NCBI RefSeq assembly: GCF_044324875.1
Contig: NZ_CP172185.1
Strand: one strand, 5' to 3'
Source: Escherichia coli
GTDB lineage: Bacteria; Pseudomonadota; Gammaproteobacteria; Enterobacterales; Enterobacteriaceae
DNA: 64,000 bases
A program made the translations under genes and the position numbers. Positions 12,235 through 48,524 of the stretch are shown one piece after another; positions within the stretch are counted from its first letter, which is position 1; every line of letters begins with the position of its first letter. Under the pieces are notes generated by a model. The model ran no database searches and was not told the DNA's origin. It saw only the letters and a program-made list of their open reading frames with translations.

Positions 12235-12310
12235 TGGCTCCTCTGACTGGACTCGAACCAGTGACATACGGATTAACAGTCCGCCGTTCTACCGACTGAA
12301 CTACAGAGGA
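12235..12310 (-). tRNA. asnV: tRNA-Asn (anticodon GUU)
   Basis: Reverse complement reads TCCTCTGTAGTTCAGTCGGTAGAACGGCGGACTGTTAATCCG...GGTTCGAGTCCAGTCAGAGGAGCCA, the E. coli tRNA-Asn sequence; gene name assigned by position. Confidence 0.95.
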
Positions 12311-22873: not shown

Positions 22874-31489
<8,616 letters not shown>

Positions 31490-31801
31490 GCTTACCTTCC
31501 CTGAACGAGCTAACATAAATGCGCCCTTTCTAGCACAGCGAAAAAAAGTAAATCCTGATAGCAATATGATTGAAAATTAATAACTTTTCGTTAAGCAGTT
31601 TTGGGTGTGAGTTGCAAGGGGGAGACTACTGAATTACTCAAGTTTTATAATCGAGGGGAAAATGGTGATGGCGTCCATAGCAAAACGCCCTCAACCATTA
31701 AGGTCGAGGGCGCTTAAGATGTCAAAAACCCGCTATCCGTTAAAAAGCAATGCTCAACTAAGGTCAGTGACATTGGGCTAAAAAAGCGAATTTTTAGAAT
31801 T

Positions 31802-32867: not shown

Positions 32868-32957
32868 CGGAGAGATGCCGGAGCGGCTGAACGGACCGGT
32901 CTCGAAAACCGGAGTGGGGGCAACTCCACCGGGGGTTCAAATCCCCCTCTCTCCGCC
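32868..32957 (+). tRNA. serU: tRNA-Ser (anticodon CGA)
   Basis: GGAGAGATGCCGGAGCGGCTGAACGGACCGGTCTCGAAAACCGGAGTGGGGGCAACTCCACCGGGGGTTCAAATCCCCCTCTCTCCGCCA: long-variable-arm class II tRNA with anticodon CGA. Confidence 0.9.
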
Positions 32958-33002
32958 AAAATTCAATCACTTATACATCATTAAGTCAGTGACAAAAATC
33001 AC

Positions 33003-33038
33003 ACTTGGAATTACTTGGAATATTTTCTTGGAATATTT
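33003..33038. repeat. Three direct CTTGGAAT repeats next to the attachment site (candidate integrase arm-type sites)
   Basis: CTTGGAAT at about 33003, 33013 and 33026, with GGAATATTTT occurring twice; lies between the tRNA-Ser 3' end and the integrase 3' end. Confidence 0.35.
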
Positions 33039-34036
33039 TCAGGTAACGGGACATCAAGTGTTGGTGAAACTTTAACCTTCCGGTCATAGATTAGCACTTG
33101 CCCTTCGGTTTTGTGACCAGAGAAAAGTTGCTTATCCCGGCTGCTTCCTTCATAGTCTGAAATTCCTTTCGCCTTCAGATCATGAAAGGTGAAGTCGGTT
33201 AAAATACCTGAAACTTTGCCTGCGCGATTTCTTGCTTCTACCCACATTTCGTTAAAGCCTTTGTACATATATCGGTTGCCGTATTGATTGCTGATCACAT
33301 AGGCGGATTTTGGTAACTGTTTTGCTTTTTCGACCGCTGCCTGTAATCGTGGACTCCATGCTTTTATCTGTTTTTTCCCTGTTTTCCCTTGCTGGATAAA
33401 GATCCCGTCGTTTCCAATCTGCTCCCATTTCAGCGATAACACATCGGAAACCCTCGCTGCACACAGATAGGCAATTTCCATTGCGATAAAAACAGGAAGG
33501 GGTGCCACGCTTAATACTGCCTGGTATTCTTTGTCGGTTACATATCGTTCGCGGTTTTTGGCCTTGAATTTACTTACTCCTGCACATGGGTTAGCCTTCA
33601 CGTACCCTCGCTCATACCCCCAACTGTAAACACGGGACATACTGCTTTTTTCATGGTTGGCTTGCGTTTTACTCTGTTCCCCTCTTTTGTCCATGTATCG
33701 ACGGATGTGTTCTGGTTTTATGGAATCCGCTGGTACCTTACCGAATACGGCAAGCAACTTTTTTTGATGTTGCAGATAATCTTTTTGTGTTCTTGGACTA
33801 AGGTCACTGTAACAGGCGCTGGCGAGGAATTTTTCCCACAAGCGACCGAATGTCATTGCACGATCGCGATTATTTACAGTTTCCTCATACTTTTTCCATA
33901 AAGCAGCTAAACCATCCTTGATGGCGGTTAGTGTTACAGATTCTCTGGATGTTGGTTTCCATACATAACTATATTTATTTGGGTATACATTTGGAGGTAA
34001 TTTTTCGTGTTCAGGATTTTTCCTTCGTCTTCCCAT
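33011..34036 (-). CDS. int: Tyrosine recombinase (phage integrase)
   Basis: 341 aa ORF adjacent to the tRNA and reading toward it; C-terminal region has tyrosine-recombinase-like R...HxxR...Y spacing (…FTFHDLKAKGISDYEGS…HKTEGQVLIYDRK…). Confidence 0.85.
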   Translation of the reverse strand: MGRRRKNPEHEKLPPNVYPNKYSYVWKPTSRESVTLTAIKDGLAALWKKYEETVNNRDRAMTFGRLWEKFLASACYSDLSPRTQKDYLQHQKKLLAVFGKVPADSIKPEHIRRYMDKRGEQSKTQANHEKSSMSRVYSWGYERGYVKANPCAGVSKFKAKNRERYVTDKEYQAVLSVAPLPVFIAMEIAYLCAARVSDVLSLKWEQIGNDGIFIQQGKTGKKQIKAWSPRLQAAVEKAKQLPKSAYVISNQYGNRYMYKGFNEMWVEARNRAGKVSGILTDFTFHDLKAKGISDYEGSSRDKQLFSGHKTEGQVLIYDRKVKVSPTLDVPLPENIPRKYSK

Positions 34037-34239
34037 CAGATCGCACCAAAATTCGGCTCTACCTCGCGTGGTGGTAAAGTTTTATTGCAGGTAAATAGAT
34101 CCCGGCTGACAATCGGTTTGCCACTACGATTGGTATAGAACGGAAGCCCGTTTTCCATTAACCATTTTCGCTGGTGGCTTGCATATTTGCAGCCCGTTAA
34201 TATTAGCAATTCATCTTCGGTTAAAAATAAGCTGCTCAT
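34036..34239 (-). CDS. xis: Excisionase-like small DNA-binding protein
   Basis: 67 aa ORF immediately upstream of int with overlapping stop/start; size and position typical of Xis. Confidence 0.6.
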   Translation of the reverse strand: MSSLFLTEDELLILTGCKYASHQRKWLMENGLPFYTNRSGKPIVSRDLFTCNKTLPPREVEPNFGAI

Positions 34240-34297: not shown

Positions 34298-36751
34298 TTA
34301 AAAATCAGCCTGATTCGGGATCAGTTTTTGTATAGTGGCTGTTACGTATTTTGCCTGGTGAAGAGCGTCATCCAGAGCATTATGGCGCACGCCTTCGAAT
34401 GGAATTACGCTTCTGGCATTGAAGTCTGTGATTTTCCCCATCTCAACGATTGTGCGTACATCACGATCGTTGCTGTAATGCCACGGACAGGGGATGTCCA
34501 GACGTTCGTATGAGGTGCGCAAAATTGCGTTATCGAACGTTGCGCCATTACCCCACACCTGAACGAATTTTTCATCAGAGTGTTCATTGACGAATTGCCG
34601 AAAACGCAAAAGGGCATCTTTCATTTTTACCTGGTCAGTTAAAATGGCAGCTCTGGCTTCGCTGGACTGCTTCAGCCACCATTCGATGGTGCCACCATCA
34701 GGAACAGCCCCTGTATTCATTGCGTCAGTCAGGCTGATAACGATATAAAATACCGGCCCGATTTCCCCTGTTTCCGGGTCGAAGAAAACCGCACCAATAA
34801 CTACTATGGGTGCATTGGTGTTGGCTCCCATTGTTTCAAGGTCGACTGACAGGTGATTCCATACTCTGCTGGTGGATGTGATTTCACGATGACCGTTCAT
34901 CTTAATTAAGGAATTTTCTGTTTCGCCAGTTTTATTATCGCTGGCGTGGCCCTGAGCGCCGCCAGTGTTCTCCTTGTGCGGATGCTCAGTGCCTTCCGTT
35001 TCCTCCGGATTTTTTTCCTGAGATTCAGCCTGATTTTCTCCATTGAATGTTTCCTGGTATGTTGCGTCACCCATTACTGAGCCACAATCAGGGCAGTTGC
35101 CGCCGCTGGTCTGACCGCAGGCGGTGCAGACTTTTTCCGGTTCCTGTTGCGCTACTGGCTCAGGTTGTTTCGTTTCTGGCTCGTTTTGTAACGCATTTTG
35201 GCTGTTTTGTTCCGCTTTCTGGTCGTTCTGTTCCGTTTCTTGCTGGTTCTGGTTCACTGAATCGCGAGTCTGGACTCCCTTAACCCATTTCAGATCATTC
35301 GGGTCGCTAATCCCTTCAACGAACTCACCACGCGAGGCCGCCAGTAATTTGTCTGCATCGACAGGATTTTTGGGCGGAATGTTTTTCCTAGCTTCATGGA
35401 GTTCTGCCCGCAGTTTCTGATATTTCGCATCAACAGAATTCACCTGCGGCTGAGCATCCAGCGGCTGCGTGTCCGGATGATGTTCAGTTGTATCCGGTTC
35501 CACTGTTTCAGTCGTTGGCTGTTCATCTGCCATTGCGCCAGACGGTTGCGGTTTTTCTTCATCATCCTGTTTTCCTTCTTCTGTTACACGCTGCGGCATT
35601 GGGGCAGAGGAACGACCGCAGGCAATATCCACGATTTCCGGATCAGGGTTGGCATGATCGGTTTCGGTCAGCACTTTATTCAAGTATTCGGTGACGCGCT
35701 GGGGCATAGCCTCTATACCAACCGGTGCTTCTTTCACGGAGGCAACCACGATGGCGCGGGAATAATCCATCCCGCCTGGCATGTTCAGAAAAGCCTTAAG
35801 GAAGACGGAGAAACAGGGATCATTTTCTGCGATAATTTCGTTAACACGTCTGGTATGTGAAGGATGCATGTTGTAAATATCCACATCCATCGAACGAGCC
35901 AGTTTTCCTGTAGCAACATCGAATGCCATTGACGCATTATCATGCACAAAACCTTCGCCGCGATCGGTAAGAATACCGCCGCCAGCGTTAGCGCCGGATG
36001 GTGTGCGACTGATGCGAGAAACACGATTTCCTTTCATCCACTCTTTTGTAAGCAGACCACGATCAGTGTAGTCAGCGTCCAGGTATGCTTCGATGAAGGA
36101 GGTCATCAGTCCCAGGTCTGAATTTACGGGGGCGGGAAAAACTTTGTCAGTGTCCCGCACCAGTTTGTACAAATCCCGAATCTCCAGCGGTTCGAGTTGC
36201 GCTGCTTTATTTGAGATGGCCAGCGCGGTAACGGCGGGAAGTTTTTCTTCCTGTGCGTTATGTAATGAGCGCAGTTCATCCCGCGAAACGTGCGTTACTG
36301 GTTTTTCGCCGCCGTGTTGCGCCAGCCAGCGAACAGGCAGAATCTGACCTGAAACCGGCAGAAGCATATTCTCCTCAATCTCAGTCATGTCTTCGCCATT
36401 AACATTGGTGTTGTCAGTGCTGGCTGGTTTGTCCTGCGCGGATGGCGGAGGCGCGATAAATATCATTGTGATGCCATCTTCGCCGCCTTTTTCATACCGG
36501 TTACAGAATTCGGTATCAAACACGCCTTCCGGTGGAAGGTCATCAACAACGGGCAAATGGACGCGAACAGGTTTTTTAAAGTCGTCTTCATCATAATCGT
36601 TATCATCCATTGCGGTAATGCAGCGGGAGATGGCAACAGATAATTTTTTTGCTGTAGTCCAGTAAAAACCACCTTTAATCCCAAGGCGTTTTCTGACTTT
36701 GTCATTTTTAGCTTCGCAATATAGCGCAAAAGTTTCTTTATCAGTGCTCAT
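34298..36751 (-). CDS. Large early protein with internal Cys4 zinc-ribbon and C-terminal DnaQ-like (DEDDh) 3'-5' exonuclease domain
   Basis: 817 aa; CTACGQ...CPDCG motif; C-terminus has DLETMG ... HNALDDA spacing like DEDDh exonucleases; occupies the recE-like position but I do not see a RecE/lambda-Exo type nuclease motif. Confidence 0.55.
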
Positions 36752-36870: not shown

Positions 36871-37092
36871 TCACCATGCCACCGCCTTTACAGGTAAACC
36901 ATCACGACCGAGGAAGACTTTAATCATGCGGTCAGTAATGCATGTTTTTGTAGTGAAATCACGGATATAAAGTTTTTGCTTTTCGATATTGTTTGCCGAG
37001 GCGATATATGTCCGGCCTTCGTAAATAACGTAATCGCCGGGAGTGACGCACTGGCGTGGTATTTCATCGGTTCCGAAGTGATGAGCAATCAT
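36871..37092 (-). CDS. Hypothetical small early-left protein
   Basis: 73 aa ORF with AAGGAG ribosome-binding site 7 nt upstream of the ATG. Confidence 0.45.
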
Positions 37093-37137: not shown

Positions 37138-37692
37138 CTATTTAATACTCAGCAACTGCTCGACGGTCATATTTTTAATTGCGCCCCGGTTTATGAGAGT
37201 CCATCCCTGCTTTTCCAGATAAAAACGGAAAGTATCCAGAGTACAGACCAGTGCGCCATCAGGAACTGTTTCGGTGAATTTGATGTAGCCGTGTTCGTCG
37301 AAGCGGATAACCAGGGTGCGGCCATCACCCGGGATTATTTTGTCAGCGGGTGTGGTGTTATTCCGGCGCAGTTCTTCCTCCATGCGGTCGAACTCGGCAA
37401 TGTAGGCTTCCTTGAATGCAGCGGCCTTTTTGCCCGTGAAGCCCATCACAAGGAAAACGAAGCCGTTTTTGGTGATTTGGTACATTGGGAGTTTGCGTCC
37501 TGTTGAGTCGGTGTATTCGCTCGCCTTAAAATTAAGGGCAGTGAACTCAGCGGAGCAGTCCAGTAATTTTATTTTTTGGATAACATTGTCGTGACGCTTG
37601 CCAAAGAATTCCGCGATCGCAACAGACGTAGTGACAGCGCGACCATTTTCAATGGTTACGTCAGGGTGAGAAAGGGTAAGGGTAGTAGCCAT
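37138..37692 (-). CDS. Rha-family phage regulatory protein (antirepressor-like)
   Basis: ORF track frame 37138..37989; likely start at internal MATTLTLSHPDV...; Rha-like motif ...VTTSVAIAEFFGKRHDNVIQKIKLL.... Confidence 0.65.
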   Translation of the reverse strand: MATTLTLSHPDVTIENGRAVTTSVAIAEFFGKRHDNVIQKIKLLDCSAEFTALNFKASEYTDSTGRKLPMYQITKNGFVFLVMGFTGKKAAAFKEAYIAEFDRMEEELRRNNTTPADKIIPGDGRTLVIRFDEHGYIKFTETVPDGALVCTLDTFRFYLEKQGWTLINRGAIKNMTVEQLLSIK

Positions 37693-37861
37693 AATGGCAG
37701 CCTCCACGTTGAGTATTGATAACTCACCACCGAGGCTTTCCACGACCATAATGGTGGTGAGACGTACAGGGGTGGAAATACCGGTCAACGTAGAACCCGG
37801 CCAGCCTTGCGGCTGCCCTGCACGCCCCACCATAATCTGAATGTGGCTGTGCTTCACGCAT

Positions 37862-37886
37862 AAAAAAACCGCCTGAGCGCGGTTGT
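37862..37886 (-). terminator. Intrinsic terminator on the minus strand upstream of rha
   Basis: Minus strand reads AACCGCGCTCAGGCGGTT followed by a U-run (plus strand TAAAAAAACCGCCTGAGCGCGGTT). Confidence 0.45.
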
Positions 37887-38501
37887 GCGCTACGTTTGAC
37901 TTCGGGTTTCCACGCCCGGCACCCGGTTTATGAGGTGCAGGTGCACTATAATTCCACCCGTACTGGTTTTCAATAGCTACATTCAACATTTTCTCTTACC
38001 TTTCATCACCGAAGTGAACTTTGTTGATGCGGTGCCAGGTGCCTCCAGGTGACGTTAACCAGTTAACAATTAACGCCGGATACAGAGAATCCACCCATAA
38101 CTCTGTTTTTGGTTTTAACTGTTCCACGTGCGATCAGCCGCATTCACCACATCACAAAATTCACTTTAAAAAGGGCGGCAGAGCAGTCACGGAGTAAAAC
38201 TGATACCGCAAAACGTCACCAGAAAATTGATAACAGATGGCGTTGCAGCGGGGTTGTCACTCAGGCGCATGGTCAACCTGACAACCCGGTGTCCTCAAGG
38301 GGAAGGGAACCCCGCCATGCTTACCGCCGCGCCATTTCGCGGAGTGCCACAACCGGAAGCGGACGGTCGACGAAAATTTAACGACAGGCTATATATGAAC
38401 CAGCTACCTCGCCGTGCGCTTTCGTGTTGTGTGCCTGCTTTTAACCACGTCAGGCGAGGTGGTATCCTCTGAGGGGTCTGTTACCCGAGAGGAAATTGGT
38501 T

Positions 38502-39121: not shown

Positions 39122-39406
39122 TTATGTTACAGGGAACTGTCGGCGGGTATGGACTACGTTTACTATTTCAATACTTGAGGTTGTCACGCGGTACAGAATT
39201 ATATAATTGGGGTGAGCCACAATCTCACGTAAGCCTGGCACTCTGTCGCTTGGGGGGTATAAATACGGATGTTCGGATAATGGCAGCACACACCCCCTTA
39301 ATCGCTGCCATAAGCGTTCTGCCGCATCTATGTCGAAACGAGCAATGTAACTAGTTATATCATCCAGGTCGGTATCTGCGCTTTCAGGCCATAACACAGG
39401 TAACAT
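39122..39406 (-). CDS. RelE/ParE-family type II toxin
   Basis: 94 aa ORF abutting the stop of an upstream small ORF; typical size and basic C-terminal region for RelE/ParE-family toxins. Confidence 0.7.
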   Translation of the reverse strand: MLPVLWPESADTDLDDITSYIARFDIDAAERLWQRLRGCVLPLSEHPYLYPPSDRVPGLREIVAHPNYIILYRVTTSSIEIVNVVHTRRQFPVT

Positions 39407-39598
39407 TTACTGTTCACTCCGTTCCTTGCGTATTTTAGCAAAGCGTTCTGCCATTCTGCGCTCAACTTCGTCATGGGGAATTGCTGGGCGCGGATCTGCA
39501 AGGCTTGCAGCTACTTTGGCTCGCAGCCATTCGTTGTAACTGTTTTCTTGTTCAATAGTTTCAAACTCAGAAACCATTGGTGAAAGGGCCGTATTCAT
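39407..39598 (-). CDS. Putative antitoxin partner of the RelE/ParE-like toxin
   Basis: Start at internal MNTALSPMVSEF... with GGAGG 7 nt upstream; 63 aa acidic protein directly upstream of and abutting the toxin gene. Confidence 0.55.
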   Translation of the reverse strand: MNTALSPMVSEFETIEQENSYNEWLRAKVAASLADPRPAIPHDEVERRMAERFAKIRKERSEQ

Positions 39599-39627
39599 GG
39601 CACACCTCCGTCTGTGTATGGTGGTCA

Positions 39628-40026
39628 TTATGCCCGATGCCCTTTCCGGGCAGCGAGCCATCTTTCAATTGTGCGATCCATTAACTCTTTTTTGTCTTTC
39701 ATCTCCTGAAGCATTTGCTCTTGATCTTCCTCTGGAAATGCCTCAAATGTTTGAAGTAGCTCCTTTTGCCTAGGAGTTATTTTTATTATATCTTGTATTC
39801 TGTCATTTTTTTCTTCATTTAACGGTAAGAAGAACCAATACTGAGGATATCCTGTTGCTTCAGATAGTTTATCTAGATTAGCTGCTGTAGGGCTTGAGAT
39901 ACCACAAACCCATCTTTGAACGGATTGTTGAGTAATGCCAATTCTGCGCGCAAGTTCTGCCTGGCTCCAGCCTGTTACCAACAAAAGCTTCCTAATTCTA
40001 AGAGCACTAATTTCGAGTACACCCAT
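39628..40026 (-). CDS. XRE-family HTH regulator (repressor-like, paralog A)
   Basis: ORF track frame 39628..40101; HTH segment SQAELARRIGITQQSVQRW; C-terminal 45 aa paralogous to the neighbouring gene; start codon uncertain. Confidence 0.6.
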   Translation of the reverse strand: MGVLEISALRIRKLLLVTGWSQAELARRIGITQQSVQRWVCGISSPTAANLDKLSEATGYPQYWFFLPLNEEKNDRIQDIIKITPRQKELLQTFEAFPEEDQEQMLQEMKDKKELMDRTIERWLAARKGHRA

Positions 40027-40060
40027 CTGATATATCTTGTTTTTAAGAGTATGCTTCCCA

Positions 40061-40432
40061 TCAGGCGCGGCGACCTTGCTGCGCCAACCAACGTGCGACA
40101 AAATCTTCCATTGCTTCTTTTTTGTTTCTTAGTTCTTTTATGATCTCTTGCTGTTCATTATCAGGAAATGCACTAAATATTTGTAGCAATTCCAGCTGGT
40201 TAGGGGTTAATGCTATAGCTCTTGATGATGGAGACTCTGTTATGTCTTCTGGCTCAATATCAAGATAACCCCCTGGCATCCCATATGTTTGTTCAATACG
40301 TCTAGCTGCTTTTTCGCCAAACGTAGCCTTACCGCTCATTAACTGAGATAAGTAACTTTTCTCTTTGGGTGGCAAAGTTCTGTCTTTGAACCACTCTTTG
40401 AGGCGTAAACGCCGAATCTCTCTTGTTTCCAT
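40061..40432 (-). CDS. HTH regulator (CI-like repressor lacking a peptidase domain, paralog B)
   Basis: 123 aa; C-terminal segment LTPNQLELLQIFSAFPDNEQQEIIKELRNKKEAMEDFVARWLAQ resembles that of paralog A; divergent from the Cro-like gene. Confidence 0.65.
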   Translation of the reverse strand: METREIRRLRLKEWFKDRTLPPKEKSYLSQLMSGKATFGEKAARRIEQTYGMPGGYLDIEPEDITESPSSRAIALTPNQLELLQIFSAFPDNEQQEIIKELRNKKEAMEDFVARWLAQQGRRA

Positions 40433-44549: not shown

Positions 44550-45215
44550 ATGACTATTGCTGATTTCAAACGGCCTAAATTGGAGCTCCCGAACGGGGCA
44601 AACAAACTACTACTGCACTCTTGCTGTGCTCCATGTTCCGGTGAAGTGATGGAGGCGCTTCAGGCCTCGGGAATCGACTACACCATCTTTTTCTACAACC
44701 CGAACATTCATCCTCAGAAAGAGTATTTAATTCGTAAGGATGAAAATATTCGCTTTGCTGAACAACACGGCGTGCCGTTTATCGATGCTGATTACGACAC
44801 CGACAACTGGTTTGAACGTGCCAAAGGAATGGAATGGGAGCCTGAGAGGGGGATCCGTTGTACCATGTGTTTTGACATGCGTTTTGAGCGGACAGCGTTG
44901 TACGCTGCTGAAAATGGTTTCAGTGTGATCAGCAGTTCACTGGGCATTTCACGCTGGAAAAATATGCAGCAGGTTAACGAGTGTGGGCGGCGAGCTGTTG
45001 CGCATTATCCGGGTATGGTGTACTGGGATTATAACTGGCGCAAGCAGGGCGGCTCGTCCCGTATGATTGAAATCAGCAAGCGCGAAAAATTCTATCAGCA
45101 GGAATATTGTGGCTGTGTGTATTCTCTGCGCGATACCAATCTACACCGCAAATCTCAGGGACGCCCTCTTATAAAAATTGGCCAACTCCACTACGGAAAA
45201 GAAGAGAAGGAGTGA
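44550..45215 (+). CDS. DUF208 / QueH-like protein (putative B12-independent epoxyqueuosine reductase)
   Basis: 221 aa with N-terminal [14 protein letters not shown] motif and further conserved Cys (…[10 protein letters not shown]…, …EYCGCVYS…), resembling what I remember of the DUF208/QueH family; own promoter-like region upstream. Confidence 0.55.
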
Positions 45216-45451
45216 TTTTATGGATCACCTTTCTGATTGATTTCATATTGGCGAGGTGACGGGAGTTAAGTAGAATTGCTGCGGGTGCTTGAGGCTATCT
45301 GCCTCGGGCATGAACACCAACGGCAGATAGAGAAAAGCCCCAGTTAACATTATGCGTCCTGCAAGACGCTTAACATTAATCTGAGGCAGAATCTATGTCT
45401 AGCAAATGTAGGTTAGCCTCTTACGTGCCGAAAGGCAAGGAGAAGCAGGCT

Positions 45452-45607
45452 ATGAAGCAGCAAAAGGCGATGTTAGTCGCCCTGATCGTCATCTGTATTA
45501 CCGTCATTGTGACGGCACTGGTAACGAGGAAAGACCTCTGCGAGGTACGAATCCGAACCGGCCAGACGGAGGTCGCTGTCTTCACAGCTTACGAACCTGA
45601 GGAGTAA
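45452..45607 (+). CDS. hok: Hok/Gef-family type I toxin
   Basis: MKQQKAMLVALIVICITVIVTALVTRKDLCEVRIRTGQTEVAVFTAYEPEE, 51 aa, near-identical to chromosomal Hok/Gef peptides; the ORF track frame extends in-frame upstream to 45395. Confidence 0.8.
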   Translation: MKQQKAMLVALIVICITVIVTALVTRKDLCEVRIRTGQTEVAVFTAYEPEE

Positions 45608-47099: not shown

Positions 47100-48158
47100 G
47101 TGCGGGTATTACTTCGACCTGTTCTGGTACCGGAACTCGGGCTGGTGGTCCTTAAGCCCGGTCGTGAATCCATGCCGGTATTTCACAATCCTCGAGTGCT
47201 GGTGGAGCCGGAACCGAAAAGTATGTGCGGCCTGCCATCCGGAGTCGTCCCTGCCGTTCGCCAGCCGCTGGCGGAGGATAAATCATTACTGCCATTTTTC
47301 AGCGATGATCGGGTGATTCGTGCTGTTGGCGGCGCTGGGGCACTGTCTGACTGGCTGTTGCGTCATGTCAAATCCTGCCAGTGGCCTCATGGTGACTATC
47401 ATCACAGTGAAATCGTCATACATCGTTACGGTACCGGCGCGATGGTGTTGTGCTGGCACTGCGACAACCAGCTGCGTGACCAGACATCCGAATCACTCGA
47501 GCAACTTGCTCATCAAAACCTGTCAGCATGGATGATTGACGTCATCGGTCACGCAATAAGCGGTACGCAGGAGCGTGAATTATCTCTGGCTGAATTATCC
47601 TGGTGGGCGGTCCGCAATCAGGTGGCGGACGCGCTTCCGGAGGCAGTATTACGTCGTTCTCTGGGGTTACGTGCGGAAAAAATCCGCTCCTTGTACCGCG
47701 AAAGCGACATCGTACCGGGAGAGCAGACCGTCACCAGCATACTGAAGCAGCGCACAAAAAATATTGCGCTACCGCCTCTCGTCCACCAGCAACAGAACCC
47801 ACCACAGGAAGAGACGGTGGTCAGCATTGCCGTTGATCCGGAGTCACCGGCTCAGTATCTCCAGCGCCAGAAACCACAACGGGAAGAGATGCCTGTATAC
47901 ACGCGCTGGGTAAAAACGCAGAAATGCATGACGTGCGGTAATCAGGCAGATGATCCGCATCACATCATTGGTCATGGACTGGGAGGGATGGGAACAAAGG
48001 CTGATGATTTGTTTGTTATTCCGCTGTGCCGTAAATGTCATAACGAACTGCACGCCGGGGTAAAAGATTTTGAAGAAAAACACGGCAGCCAGCTGTTGTT
48101 GCTGATTCGTTTTTTAATGCACGCGAGAAATTCAGGTGTCCTGAAGTGGAAAGCATAA
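47100..48158 (+). CDS. DUF968-like nin-region protein with C-terminal Cys/His HNH-like motif
   Basis: GTG start after GGAGG; C-terminus CMTCGN...DPHHIIGHGLGGMGTKADDLFVIPLCRKCHNELH; sits before rusA. Confidence 0.5.
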   Translation: MRVLLRPVLVPELGLVVLKPGRESMPVFHNPRVLVEPEPKSMCGLPSGVVPAVRQPLAEDKSLLPFFSDDRVIRAVGGAGALSDWLLRHVKSCQWPHGDYHHSEIVIHRYGTGAMVLCWHCDNQLRDQTSESLEQLAHQNLSAWMIDVIGHAISGTQERELSLAELSWWAVRNQVADALPEAVLRRSLGLRAEKIRSLYRESDIVPGEQTVTSILKQRTKNIALPPLVHQQQNPPQEETVVSIAVDPESPAQYLQRQKPQREEMPVYTRWVKTQKCMTCGNQADDPHHIIGHGLGGMGTKADDLFVIPLCRKCHNELHAGVKDFEEKHGSQLLLLIRFLMHARNSGVLKWKA

Positions 48159-48524
48159 ATGACTGAAAGCATAGAATTTGTTTTGCCTTACCCGCCAACG
48201 GTGAACACCTACTGGCGACGTCGTGGCAGCACATATTTTGTATCAAAAGCCGGTGAGCGTTATCGCCGTGATGTGGCGCTCATTGTTCGCCAGCAGCGGC
48301 TGAAGTTAAACCTGTCCGGACGGCTGGCGATAAAGATTATTGCAGAGCCACCGGATAAACGTCGTCGTGACCTGGACAATATCCTGAAAGCACCACTGGA
48401 TGCGCTGACGCATGCCGGACTTCTCATAGACGACGAGCAGTTTGATGAAATCAATATTGTGCGCGGTCAGCGCGTTCCTGGGGGGCGGCTGGGCGTGAAG
48501 ATTTACAAAATTGAGAGTGAGTGA
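48159..48524 (+). CDS. rusA: Holliday junction resolvase RusA
   Basis: 121 aa MTESIEFVLPYPPTVNTYW... with the RusA acidic motif RRRDLDN. Confidence 0.85.
   Translation: MTESIEFVLPYPPTVNTYWRRRGSTYFVSKAGERYRRDVALIVRQQRLKLNLSGRLAIKIIAEPPDKRRRDLDNILKAPLDALTHAGLLIDDEQFDEINIVRGQRVPGGRLGVKIYKIESE

Follow-up and report, generated by a model that had tools for sequence, protein, structure and literature searches.

What does a protein do that has the N-terminal region of RecE, a different nuclease at its C-terminus and no annealase encoded beside it? The question is raised by a gene for an 817-amino-acid (817-aa) protein in a lambdoid prophage of Escherichia coli (NCBI RefSeq assembly GCF_044324875.1, contig NZ_CP172185.1), studied here in a stretch of 64 kb that is referred to as the window. 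A first-pass annotation of this DNA had pointed to an early-left open reading frame (ORF) in the recE position, whose product has an internal zinc ribbon and a C-terminus with the motif spacing of DEDDh 3'-5' exonucleases rather than the lambda-Exo/RecE PD-(D/E)XK fold, and to the lack of an adjacent recT. Each of these points is borne out by domain, structure and homology searches, with the qualification that the zinc ribbon, real as a sequence motif, lies in a low-confidence linker and is specific to one clade. The gene occupies exactly the following interval, between kil and xis-int:

34298..36751, minus strand: 817-aa gene with ATG start (ORF list and translation), encoding a RecE-type N-terminal region joined to a DEDDh exonuclease

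A DexA-like exonuclease domain at the C-terminus

34337..34858, minus strand: DEDDh 3'-5' exonuclease domain (DexA-like), aa 632-805 (Pfam PF16473)

The C-terminal part of the protein matches PF16473, the Rv2179c-like 3'-5' exoribonuclease domain, almost from end to end (positions 1-175 of the 177 in the profile; E 3.1e-66; 222.9 bits, cutoff 27), and no Pfam match to the RecE nuclease family PF12684/DUF3799 is found in the 817-aa protein. In an alignment of 19 sequences the catalytic residues D637, D740, H790 and D795 show little or no variation, E639 is conserved in all but one of them, and D637, E639, D740, H790 and D795 align with D7, E9, D119, H186 and D191 of T4 DexA. An AlphaFold2 model of aa 601-817 has a mean predicted local distance difference test score (pLDDT) of 86.5, rising above 90 across the DEDDh domain. 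Among the 50 Foldseek matches listed from the PDB, the best are to T4 DexA (8kel and 8ken; E 1e-12, template modeling score 0.68), followed by REXO2/Orn, RNase T, a DnaQ domain and Cap18, with E values from 1e-12 to 1e-5 across these named matches. DexA is likewise found with phmmer (E 1e-7). A PD-(D/E)XK/lambda-Exo fold at the C-terminus is excluded by Pfam and by BLASTP, which detects no RecE similarity past aa 616, and is absent among the same 50 structural matches.

The last 180 residues of the protein share 54% identity with mEp235 Exo and 61% with mEp460 Exo. From membership in this family, a 3'→5' exonuclease activity is predicted for the domain.

The RecE-type N-terminal region

36452..36739, minus strand: small alpha/beta N-terminal domain, aa 5-100 (AlphaFold2, pLDDT about 80-87)
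35582..36394, minus strand: confident, mostly helical core, aa 120-390 (AlphaFold2, pLDDT above 90)
34892..35551, minus strand: acidic/polar linker, mostly disordered, aa 401-620 (pLDDT below 50 at 401-437 and 493-620)
35084..35128, minus strand: zinc-ribbon-like motif, aa 542-556 (C542-x2-C545-x7-C553-x2-C556 in the sequence)

By BLASTP, aa 58-616 are 70% identical to residues 50-591 of RecE from the Rac prophage of E. coli K-12, and similarity ceases after aa 616. Pfam PF06630 (Exonuc_VIII) matches aa 57-189. The NCBIfam exonuclease VIII equivalog profile, NF007259, is matched by aa 1-616 over positions 1-602 of 877 only, and the score of 1027.9 bits falls below the curated cutoff of 1269, so that the protein is not an exonuclease VIII equivalog by this measure.

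The AlphaFold2 model of the N-terminal region, built on 99 family members, resolves the parts listed above. Conservation and occupancy across these 99 members peak in the helical core, which holds the most conserved motif of the region (DRG..EW..G..RT.sG..AGGG..TDR ... PGxxDYSRA) and is 83% identical to the core of K-12 RecE, with a ratio of nonsynonymous to synonymous substitution rates (dN/dS) of 0.16. A structure search with the core, aa 120-390, returned no solved or viral structural relative. The linker is interrupted by two short helices (aa 438-473, AlphaFold2). The zinc-ribbon-like motif, common to this protein and K-12 RecE, sits inside the low-confidence, disordered part of the linker; just 6 of the 80 family representatives have it, and it is for that reason regarded as a clade-specific insert, not a hallmark of the family.

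The fusion junction

34859..34922, minus strand: fusion junction (Rac, mEp235 and mEp460 compared by blastn and tblastn; BLASTP similarity to RecE ends at aa 616)
34868..34875, plus strand: Chi site GCTGGTGG inside the junction of about 60 bp (pattern search)

Similarity to Rac recE stops at 34922, and similarity to the stand-alone phage exonucleases starts at 34859. In a review of RecE, the nuclease domain is defined as residues 564-866 (PMC11611040), which places the swap point near the start of that domain. The Chi site inside the junction could be due to chance or could be a trace of the origin of the fusion; relatives that have the identical "TSTSR" peptide presumably keep it. A second Chi site lies nearby within xis (34170-34177).

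Missing annealase and recombination partners

The gene that follows the exonuclease gene directly is xis, not recT, so that the arrangement is not that of RecET; nor does it form a canonical lambdoid Rec module as described in PMC12315714, since a nuclease is the sole component present and the operon has it at its int-proximal end. Twelve recombination proteins served as tblastn queries against all six frames of the 64-kb window and of three relatives (loci L001, L035 and L036). In the window, no match at E<0.1 was obtained for RecT, Redbeta, Erf, Sak4 or a Rad52-like annealase, nor for two single-stranded DNA-binding proteins (SSBs), Gam, Abc1, Abc2 or lambda Exo; the positive controls (the RecE N-terminus, KilR, and the mEp235 and mEp460 Exo proteins) all matched there. 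The identical queries gave nothing at E<=0.01 in the three relatives, one of which is the prophage PPompW, delimited by attL and attR. Scans of the early genes with PHROG, Pfam and NCBIfam also identified no annealase, SSB or RecBCD inhibitor.

The stand-alone homologues of the DEDDh domain lie in phage gene clusters for recombination or replication. In mEp235 the cluster reads Rad52-like annealase, SSB, Exo and Abc2; in RcPacific, Cas4 nuclease, Exo and DNA polymerase. In Bastille the homologue lies between recombination exonucleases, and in a Vibrio phage it is near a Gp2.5-like protein. A 2025 paper (PMC12315714) reports DnaQ-like 3'-5' nucleases from the Rec modules of lambdoid phages and, sporadically, from the neighborhood of int; nucleases of this type in the latter position are already in print.

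Distribution, family and selection

The first-pass annotation implied that the gene is rare, which it is not: this is the standard arrangement of a very large E. coli prophage lineage, and it is already annotated as a 3'-5' exonuclease. Of 5426 complete E. coli genomes, 1017 have full-length nucleotide matches, and 4117 (76%) have the junction plus DEDDh segment at a coverage of at least 80%. Matching places per genome have a median of 2 and reach 8, as in O157:H7 strain EC4115. A single identical protein has index entries in 1547 blocks of an assembly collection, and the gene is also found in records of induced phages and of Stx2a phages. PGAP names are "exonuclease" or "3'-5' exonuclease", other sources use "3'-5' exoribonuclease" or "exodeoxyribonuclease VIII", and the architecture PF06630 plus PF16473 is precomputed for all of the 120 closest clusters. 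The protein is thus already catalogued, abundant and correctly named at the domain level in public annotation. The literature searched holds no description of the fusion to the RecE N-terminal region, of the consistent lack of an annealase as compared with the PD-(D/E)XK versions, or of the modularity that this implies for the RecE N-terminal region.

An exhaustive search with aa 1-620 returned 229 clusters at 50% identity. By domain mapping, a PD-(D/E)XK nuclease is present in about 17-20 clusters of this RecE N-terminal family and a DEDDh domain in about 12-15, some of the latter having N-termini only 20-35% identical to that of the 817-aa protein; many clusters have no recognizable C-terminal domain, and part of RecT is found in two (P0123, the clear case, and P0261). 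The genomic context of the DEDDh fusions was read in the window and in loci L001, L002, L011-18, L020-24, L035 and L036. In all of these the gene is directly ahead of xis-int with no annealase between, and the sampled prophages differ in integrase and in insertion site. Immediately after the PD-(D/E)XK versions comes recT or else a gene that encodes 271 aa and has no assigned function. One such 271-aa protein (L025, 7565-8380), in the recT place after a PD-(D/E)XK RecE homologue, has no Pfam match, belongs to PHROG 3657 and is a candidate for an unrecognized annealase.

Pairwise dN/dS values, taken from comparisons in which dS was estimable and not near zero, range from 0.14 to 0.25 in the DEDDh domain and from 0.12 to 0.39 in the N-terminal regions, and by these estimates the gene is under purifying selection. 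Given this selection and the divergent relatives that share the architecture, the fusion is therefore regarded as old and maintained, and not as a local accident. The N-terminal region of RecE behaves like a portable module and is found joined to nucleases of both types.

Three apparent variants did not hold up. A RecE N-terminus joined to RecT was considered as a third natural architecture; the P0123 protein, however, is on one contig only, where the prophage is Rac-like, and is read as the product of a deletion joining recE to recT. The protein of this type in L037 (4001-6112; GCA_043242935.1), seen on one contig within an otherwise Rac-like prophage, has 703 aa, with the RecE N-terminus running to about aa 528 and joined directly to part of RecT, and probably reflects a deletion that removed the nuclease domain. 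Matches to aa 465-817 in PPompW and in Stx phages had suggested a "short" form made up of zinc ribbon and DEDDh domain. The copy in PPompW_EH2246 (L036, 1670-4137; a complete attL-attR prophage in which insertion sequence (IS) elements are present) is a full-length gene annotated as frameshifted, and the apparent short variant in that record is due to the frameshift. Finally, ydfE of K-12 was rejected as a direct orthologue, as it has no tblastn similarity to the 817-aa protein at E<=1e-3. This gene (L019, 4079-4999, prophage Qin) is a pseudogene cut by IS2E in the equivalent slot, dicB-ydfD-ydfE-intQ. The ydfE locus and that of the 817-aa gene have upstream intergenic DNA in common, and two divergent DEDDh fusions (P0148 and P0251) give faint YdfE_C Pfam matches.

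Chi sites

The part of the prophage inside the window (31 kb) has 8 Chi sites on the top strand and 3 on the bottom strand; 5 more lie in the 33-kb host flank, and about 2 are expected by chance for the whole window. Seven of the 8 top-strand sites are between att and the likely cos site, which is taken to be just upstream of the terminase genes, at about 51.9 kb. Two closely spaced top-strand pairs occur, one in cII (41080/41125, 45 bp apart) and one at the start of ydfU (47141/47198, 57 bp apart). One relative repeats this pattern, with 8 Chi sites in the active orientation vs 4.

According to PMC12315714, lambdoid phages without an anti-RecBCD function (its classes A and B), including a "nuclease only" class, are rich in Chi in the active orientation, and phages without a Rec module are proposed to form concatemers through RecBCD-Chi recombination of the host. 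The 31 kb of prophage inside the window have the features by which that paper (Table 1) recognizes such phages, namely at least 4 Chi sites in the active orientation and no anti-RecBCD gene.

The prophage and its flank

36871..37092, minus strand: kil (FtsZ inhibitor), immediately upstream of the 817-aa gene (NCBIfam NF008465, E 1.5e-44)
34036..34239, minus strand: xis (excisionase, DUF4224), immediately downstream of the 817-aa gene (Pfam, PHROG)
33011..34036, minus strand: int (tyrosine integrase), at the left prophage end (Pfam PF00589)
32869-32958: tRNA-Ser(cga), adjoining int; insertion site of the prophage, beside mtfA (tRNA scan)
37138-37989, minus strand: Rha/Ash regulator of 283 aa, with an Ash-family N-terminus (aa 14-108) and a Rha domain (aa 120-205)
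39122-40101, minus strand: paaR2-paaA2-parE2-type toxin-antitoxin module of three genes, between the early-left genes and the repressor
47172..48524, plus strand: YdfU-like DUF968/HNH protein and RusA Holliday-junction resolvase (PHROG 96, PHROG 34)

The window covers the prophage from its left end into the tail genes, where the 64 kb stop. The 817-aa gene is the last of the early-left operon ahead of xis-int. Read leftward, the order is repressor-like genes and toxin-antitoxin module (39122-40432), a small uncharacterized gene, the Rha/Ash regulator, kil, the 817-aa gene, xis and int. The kil product is 88% identical to KilR of K-12, and on the Rac gene map the slot that xis fills here is held by recT-ralR-rcbA. 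The Rha/Ash protein is encoded just upstream of kil, the place of racC/ydaE in Rac. The toxin-antitoxin module specifies a ParE toxin of 94 aa, a PaaA2 antitoxin of 84 aa and a helix-turn-helix regulator of 157 aa; strain AR_0085 (L001), which has a near-identical exonuclease gene, has another immunity region without this module.

Rightward lie cro, cII, replication genes, QueH, a Hok-like toxin, YdfU, RusA and Q, and beyond Q there are ORFs placed where the genes for lysis, terminase, head and tail would lie, equivalents of which are annotated in the near-identical L001. DUF968 and RusA are annotated in L001 too; the YdfU and RusA proteins are late recombination functions carried by the phage. 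The epoxyqueuosine reductase QueH homologue (44550-45215, plus strand) and the 70-aa Hok-family toxin-like ORF (45395-45607, plus strand) are also annotated in that related prophage. In the host flank, a 2896-aa protein of many near-identical repeats (22874-31564, minus strand) is encoded by an ORF that starts with TTG (the first in-frame ATG would give 2880 aa); we take it to resemble the adhesin YeeJ. Four tRNA-Asn genes are scattered through the same flank, at 12235, 14643, 16467 and 31802.

A proposed role and its alternatives

The first-pass annotation had left a choice between a non-canonical recombination nuclease and an anti-defense nuclease. A role in recombination or at DNA ends is favored by the early-left position and by the links of the family to recombination modules; the anti-defense suggestion gained no support, and there is no PADLOC match. 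The reading put forward here, tentatively, is that the 817-aa protein acts as an annealase-independent trimmer of 3' ends, in a Chi-rich phage that would depend on RecBCD-Chi/RecA of the host and on a RusA of its own. If lambda and Rac are a guide, the leftward early promoter would drive the gene in the lytic phase, and the N-terminal module would bring the nuclease to its site of action, whether DNA ends or a host factor. There the DexA-like domain may remove nucleotides from the 3' end or tail of DNA that is linear or broken, a step for which no phage annealase would be needed; strand exchange would be left to host RecBCD-Chi/RecA and resolution to the RusA of the phage.

Several points weigh against this proposal. 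The authors of PMC12315714 note that 3'-5' exonucleases usually inhibit homologous recombination, and they place the DnaQ-type genes beside int outside canonical Rec modules. Our confidence in the role stays a little below an even chance; enzymes of this polarity generally oppose recombination. The polarity is predicted from the family, as is the substrate, be it DNA or RNA, single- or double-stranded, and the fold of the N-terminal region yields no clue to function. Enrichment in Chi is not universal among the relatives: the decayed prophage PPompW, with its frameshifted gene, has only 4 sites (3 vs 1). A scan for a promoter or terminator belonging to the 817-aa gene itself stayed at background level, so that the timing of expression rests on the lambda and Rac analogy.

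The alternatives differ in what the predicted nuclease would act upon. One of them, which we consider unlikely, keeps the enzyme in recombination and reverses the polarity of annealing: 3' strands would be resected at two ends and the complementary 5' tails would anneal without a dedicated annealase, in the manner of ExoIII-driven in vivo cloning, with the RecE N-terminal region favoring linear-linear joining, as in the building of concatemers. It is in keeping with this that full-length RecE, and not the nuclease domain alone, enhances linear-linear recombination (PMC11611040), that the 3'-5' exonuclease XthA of E. coli is reported to drive homology-based in vivo cloning through cohesive ends (abstract of bioRxiv 10.1101/454074), and that one N-terminal module is retained with either nuclease type; but no annealing factor has been identified, processivity of the DEDDh enzyme on duplex ends would have to be assumed, and the richness in Chi points to use of RecBCD. 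The closeness to DexA raises another possibility, an HREX-like exclusion nuclease that digests the modified (5-hydroxymethylcytosine- or 5hmC-type) DNA of competing phages and thereby shields the cell or the phage resident in it. Among solved structures T4 DexA comes closest. Kang et al. 2025 (PMC12153337) report that DexA homologues are widespread in Escherichia and show that one of these, EcD, degrades T4 DNA, spares DNA without modification and protects the cell from T4; EcD is also the sole experimentally known DexA-like system of E. coli and acts in defense, not in anti-defense. Nevertheless, the residues of DexA reported to recognize 5hmC, W152 and D169, are replaced by S760 and I774 (an alignment-dependent assignment; most other family members have Trp at the W152-equivalent position), and the DexA tetramer residue D90, which is Ala in EcD, is kept as D712, with S87 replaced by K709. 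EcD is moreover a different, stand-alone protein starting with MIDTET, and PADLOC-DB 2.0 returns no match (0 families at E<=0.001); we consider an exclusion function improbable.

Nucleic acids other than the ends of phage or competitor DNA are the targets in two further explanations, to each of which we give little weight. An anti-defense enzyme could destroy a nucleic acid of host immunity, be it a signaling oligonucleotide, retron msDNA or guide or primer RNA; early expression would suit counter-defense, and the structural neighbors include small DEDDh enzymes (Orn/REXO2) that degrade short oligonucleotides, but no homology to a known anti-defense protein was found, literature searches gave nothing relevant, and the large RecE-type N-terminal region would be left with no obvious role. 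An RNA-directed enzyme, trimming the 3' ends of primers, R-loops or regulatory RNAs, is brought to mind by PF16473 itself, which is named after the Mycobacterium tuberculosis exoribonuclease Rv2179c, by the "3'-5' exoribonuclease" among the public names, and by RNase T, Orn and REXO2 among the structural neighbors. That name, however, is transferred by homology; the best match in both sequence and structure is the DNase DexA, and the stand-alone relatives lie in clusters for DNA recombination or replication. The disfavored view, and to us a highly improbable one, is that the gene is a functionless remnant of an accidental recombination between a Rac-like and an mEp-like phage. A mosaic junction with a Chi site inside it, the frameshifted copies such as that of PPompW, and the K-12 Qin slot that holds only a disrupted ydfE could all be taken in this sense; against it stand an intact ORF with purifying selection in all measurable regions, the conserved catalytic pentad, an architecture shared by lineages with as little as 20-35% identity at the N-terminus, and a DEDDh segment present in 76% of complete E. 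coli genomes at up to 8 places in each.

In a more far-reaching reading, the RecE N-terminal region might be an autonomous, portable module for targeting or scaffolding, and its fusion to the DEDDh domain a one-protein, annealase-independent end processor with a polarity opposite to that of RecE, which either prepares ends for host RecBCD-Chi or anneals 5' tails itself. We regard this wider reading as doubtful. Were it true, it would be a third lambdoid route to recombination-dependent growth, beside that of the Red/RecET-type phages and that of the phages with "no Rec module". The function of the N-terminal 560-600 residues of RecE is listed as unknown, although linear-linear recombineering makes use of the full-length protein (PMC11611040). 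Here the same module is kept under purifying selection with a nuclease of predicted opposite polarity and no annealase, and the swapped-nuclease gene makes its role directly testable. Most E. coli genomes carry the fusion, which is found in Stx phages and in prophages of O157:H7, among others. Its study bears on the replication and recombination of lambdoid phages that have neither an annealase nor a RecBCD inhibitor, and such phage recombination affects the mosaic evolution of toxin-carrying prophages.

Comparison with known systems

RecE of Rac and the 817-aa protein share the operon slot after kil and before xis-int, as well as the acidic linker and the zinc-ribbon motif. They differ at the C-terminus, where RecE has a PD-(D/E)XK 5'→3' nuclease and the 817-aa protein a DEDDh domain, and in what follows, recT, ralR and rcbA in Rac and none of these after the 817-aa gene.

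The exonucleases of the mEp235 Exo, mEp460 gp26 and epsilon34 type are 54-61% identical to the 817-aa protein over the DEDDh domain and have the same catalytic residues, but they are proteins of about 180-190 aa without a RecE-type N-terminus. Whereas mEp235 Exo is packed together with a Rad52-like annealase, SSB and Abc2, the 817-aa gene has no such partners. In PMC12315714, stand-alone DnaQ-like exonucleases are recognized as nucleases of lambdoid Rec modules or of the region near int. T4 DexA, the closest solved structure among the matches listed, has the same DEDDh catalytic set at only about 22-25% identity and carries extra loops that are absent from the 817-aa protein; DexA and EcD ("HREX") are stand-alone proteins, and the 817-aa protein is a fusion. 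The accessible text of PMC12315714 describes no fusion of a RecE N-terminus to a DnaQ-like domain and does not state the nuclease type of Tritos. The phages described there that the prophage resembles most in content are the Tritos type ("nuclease only") and the LLS type ("no Rec module"), which likewise have no annealase, SSB or anti-RecBCD function and are rich in Chi.

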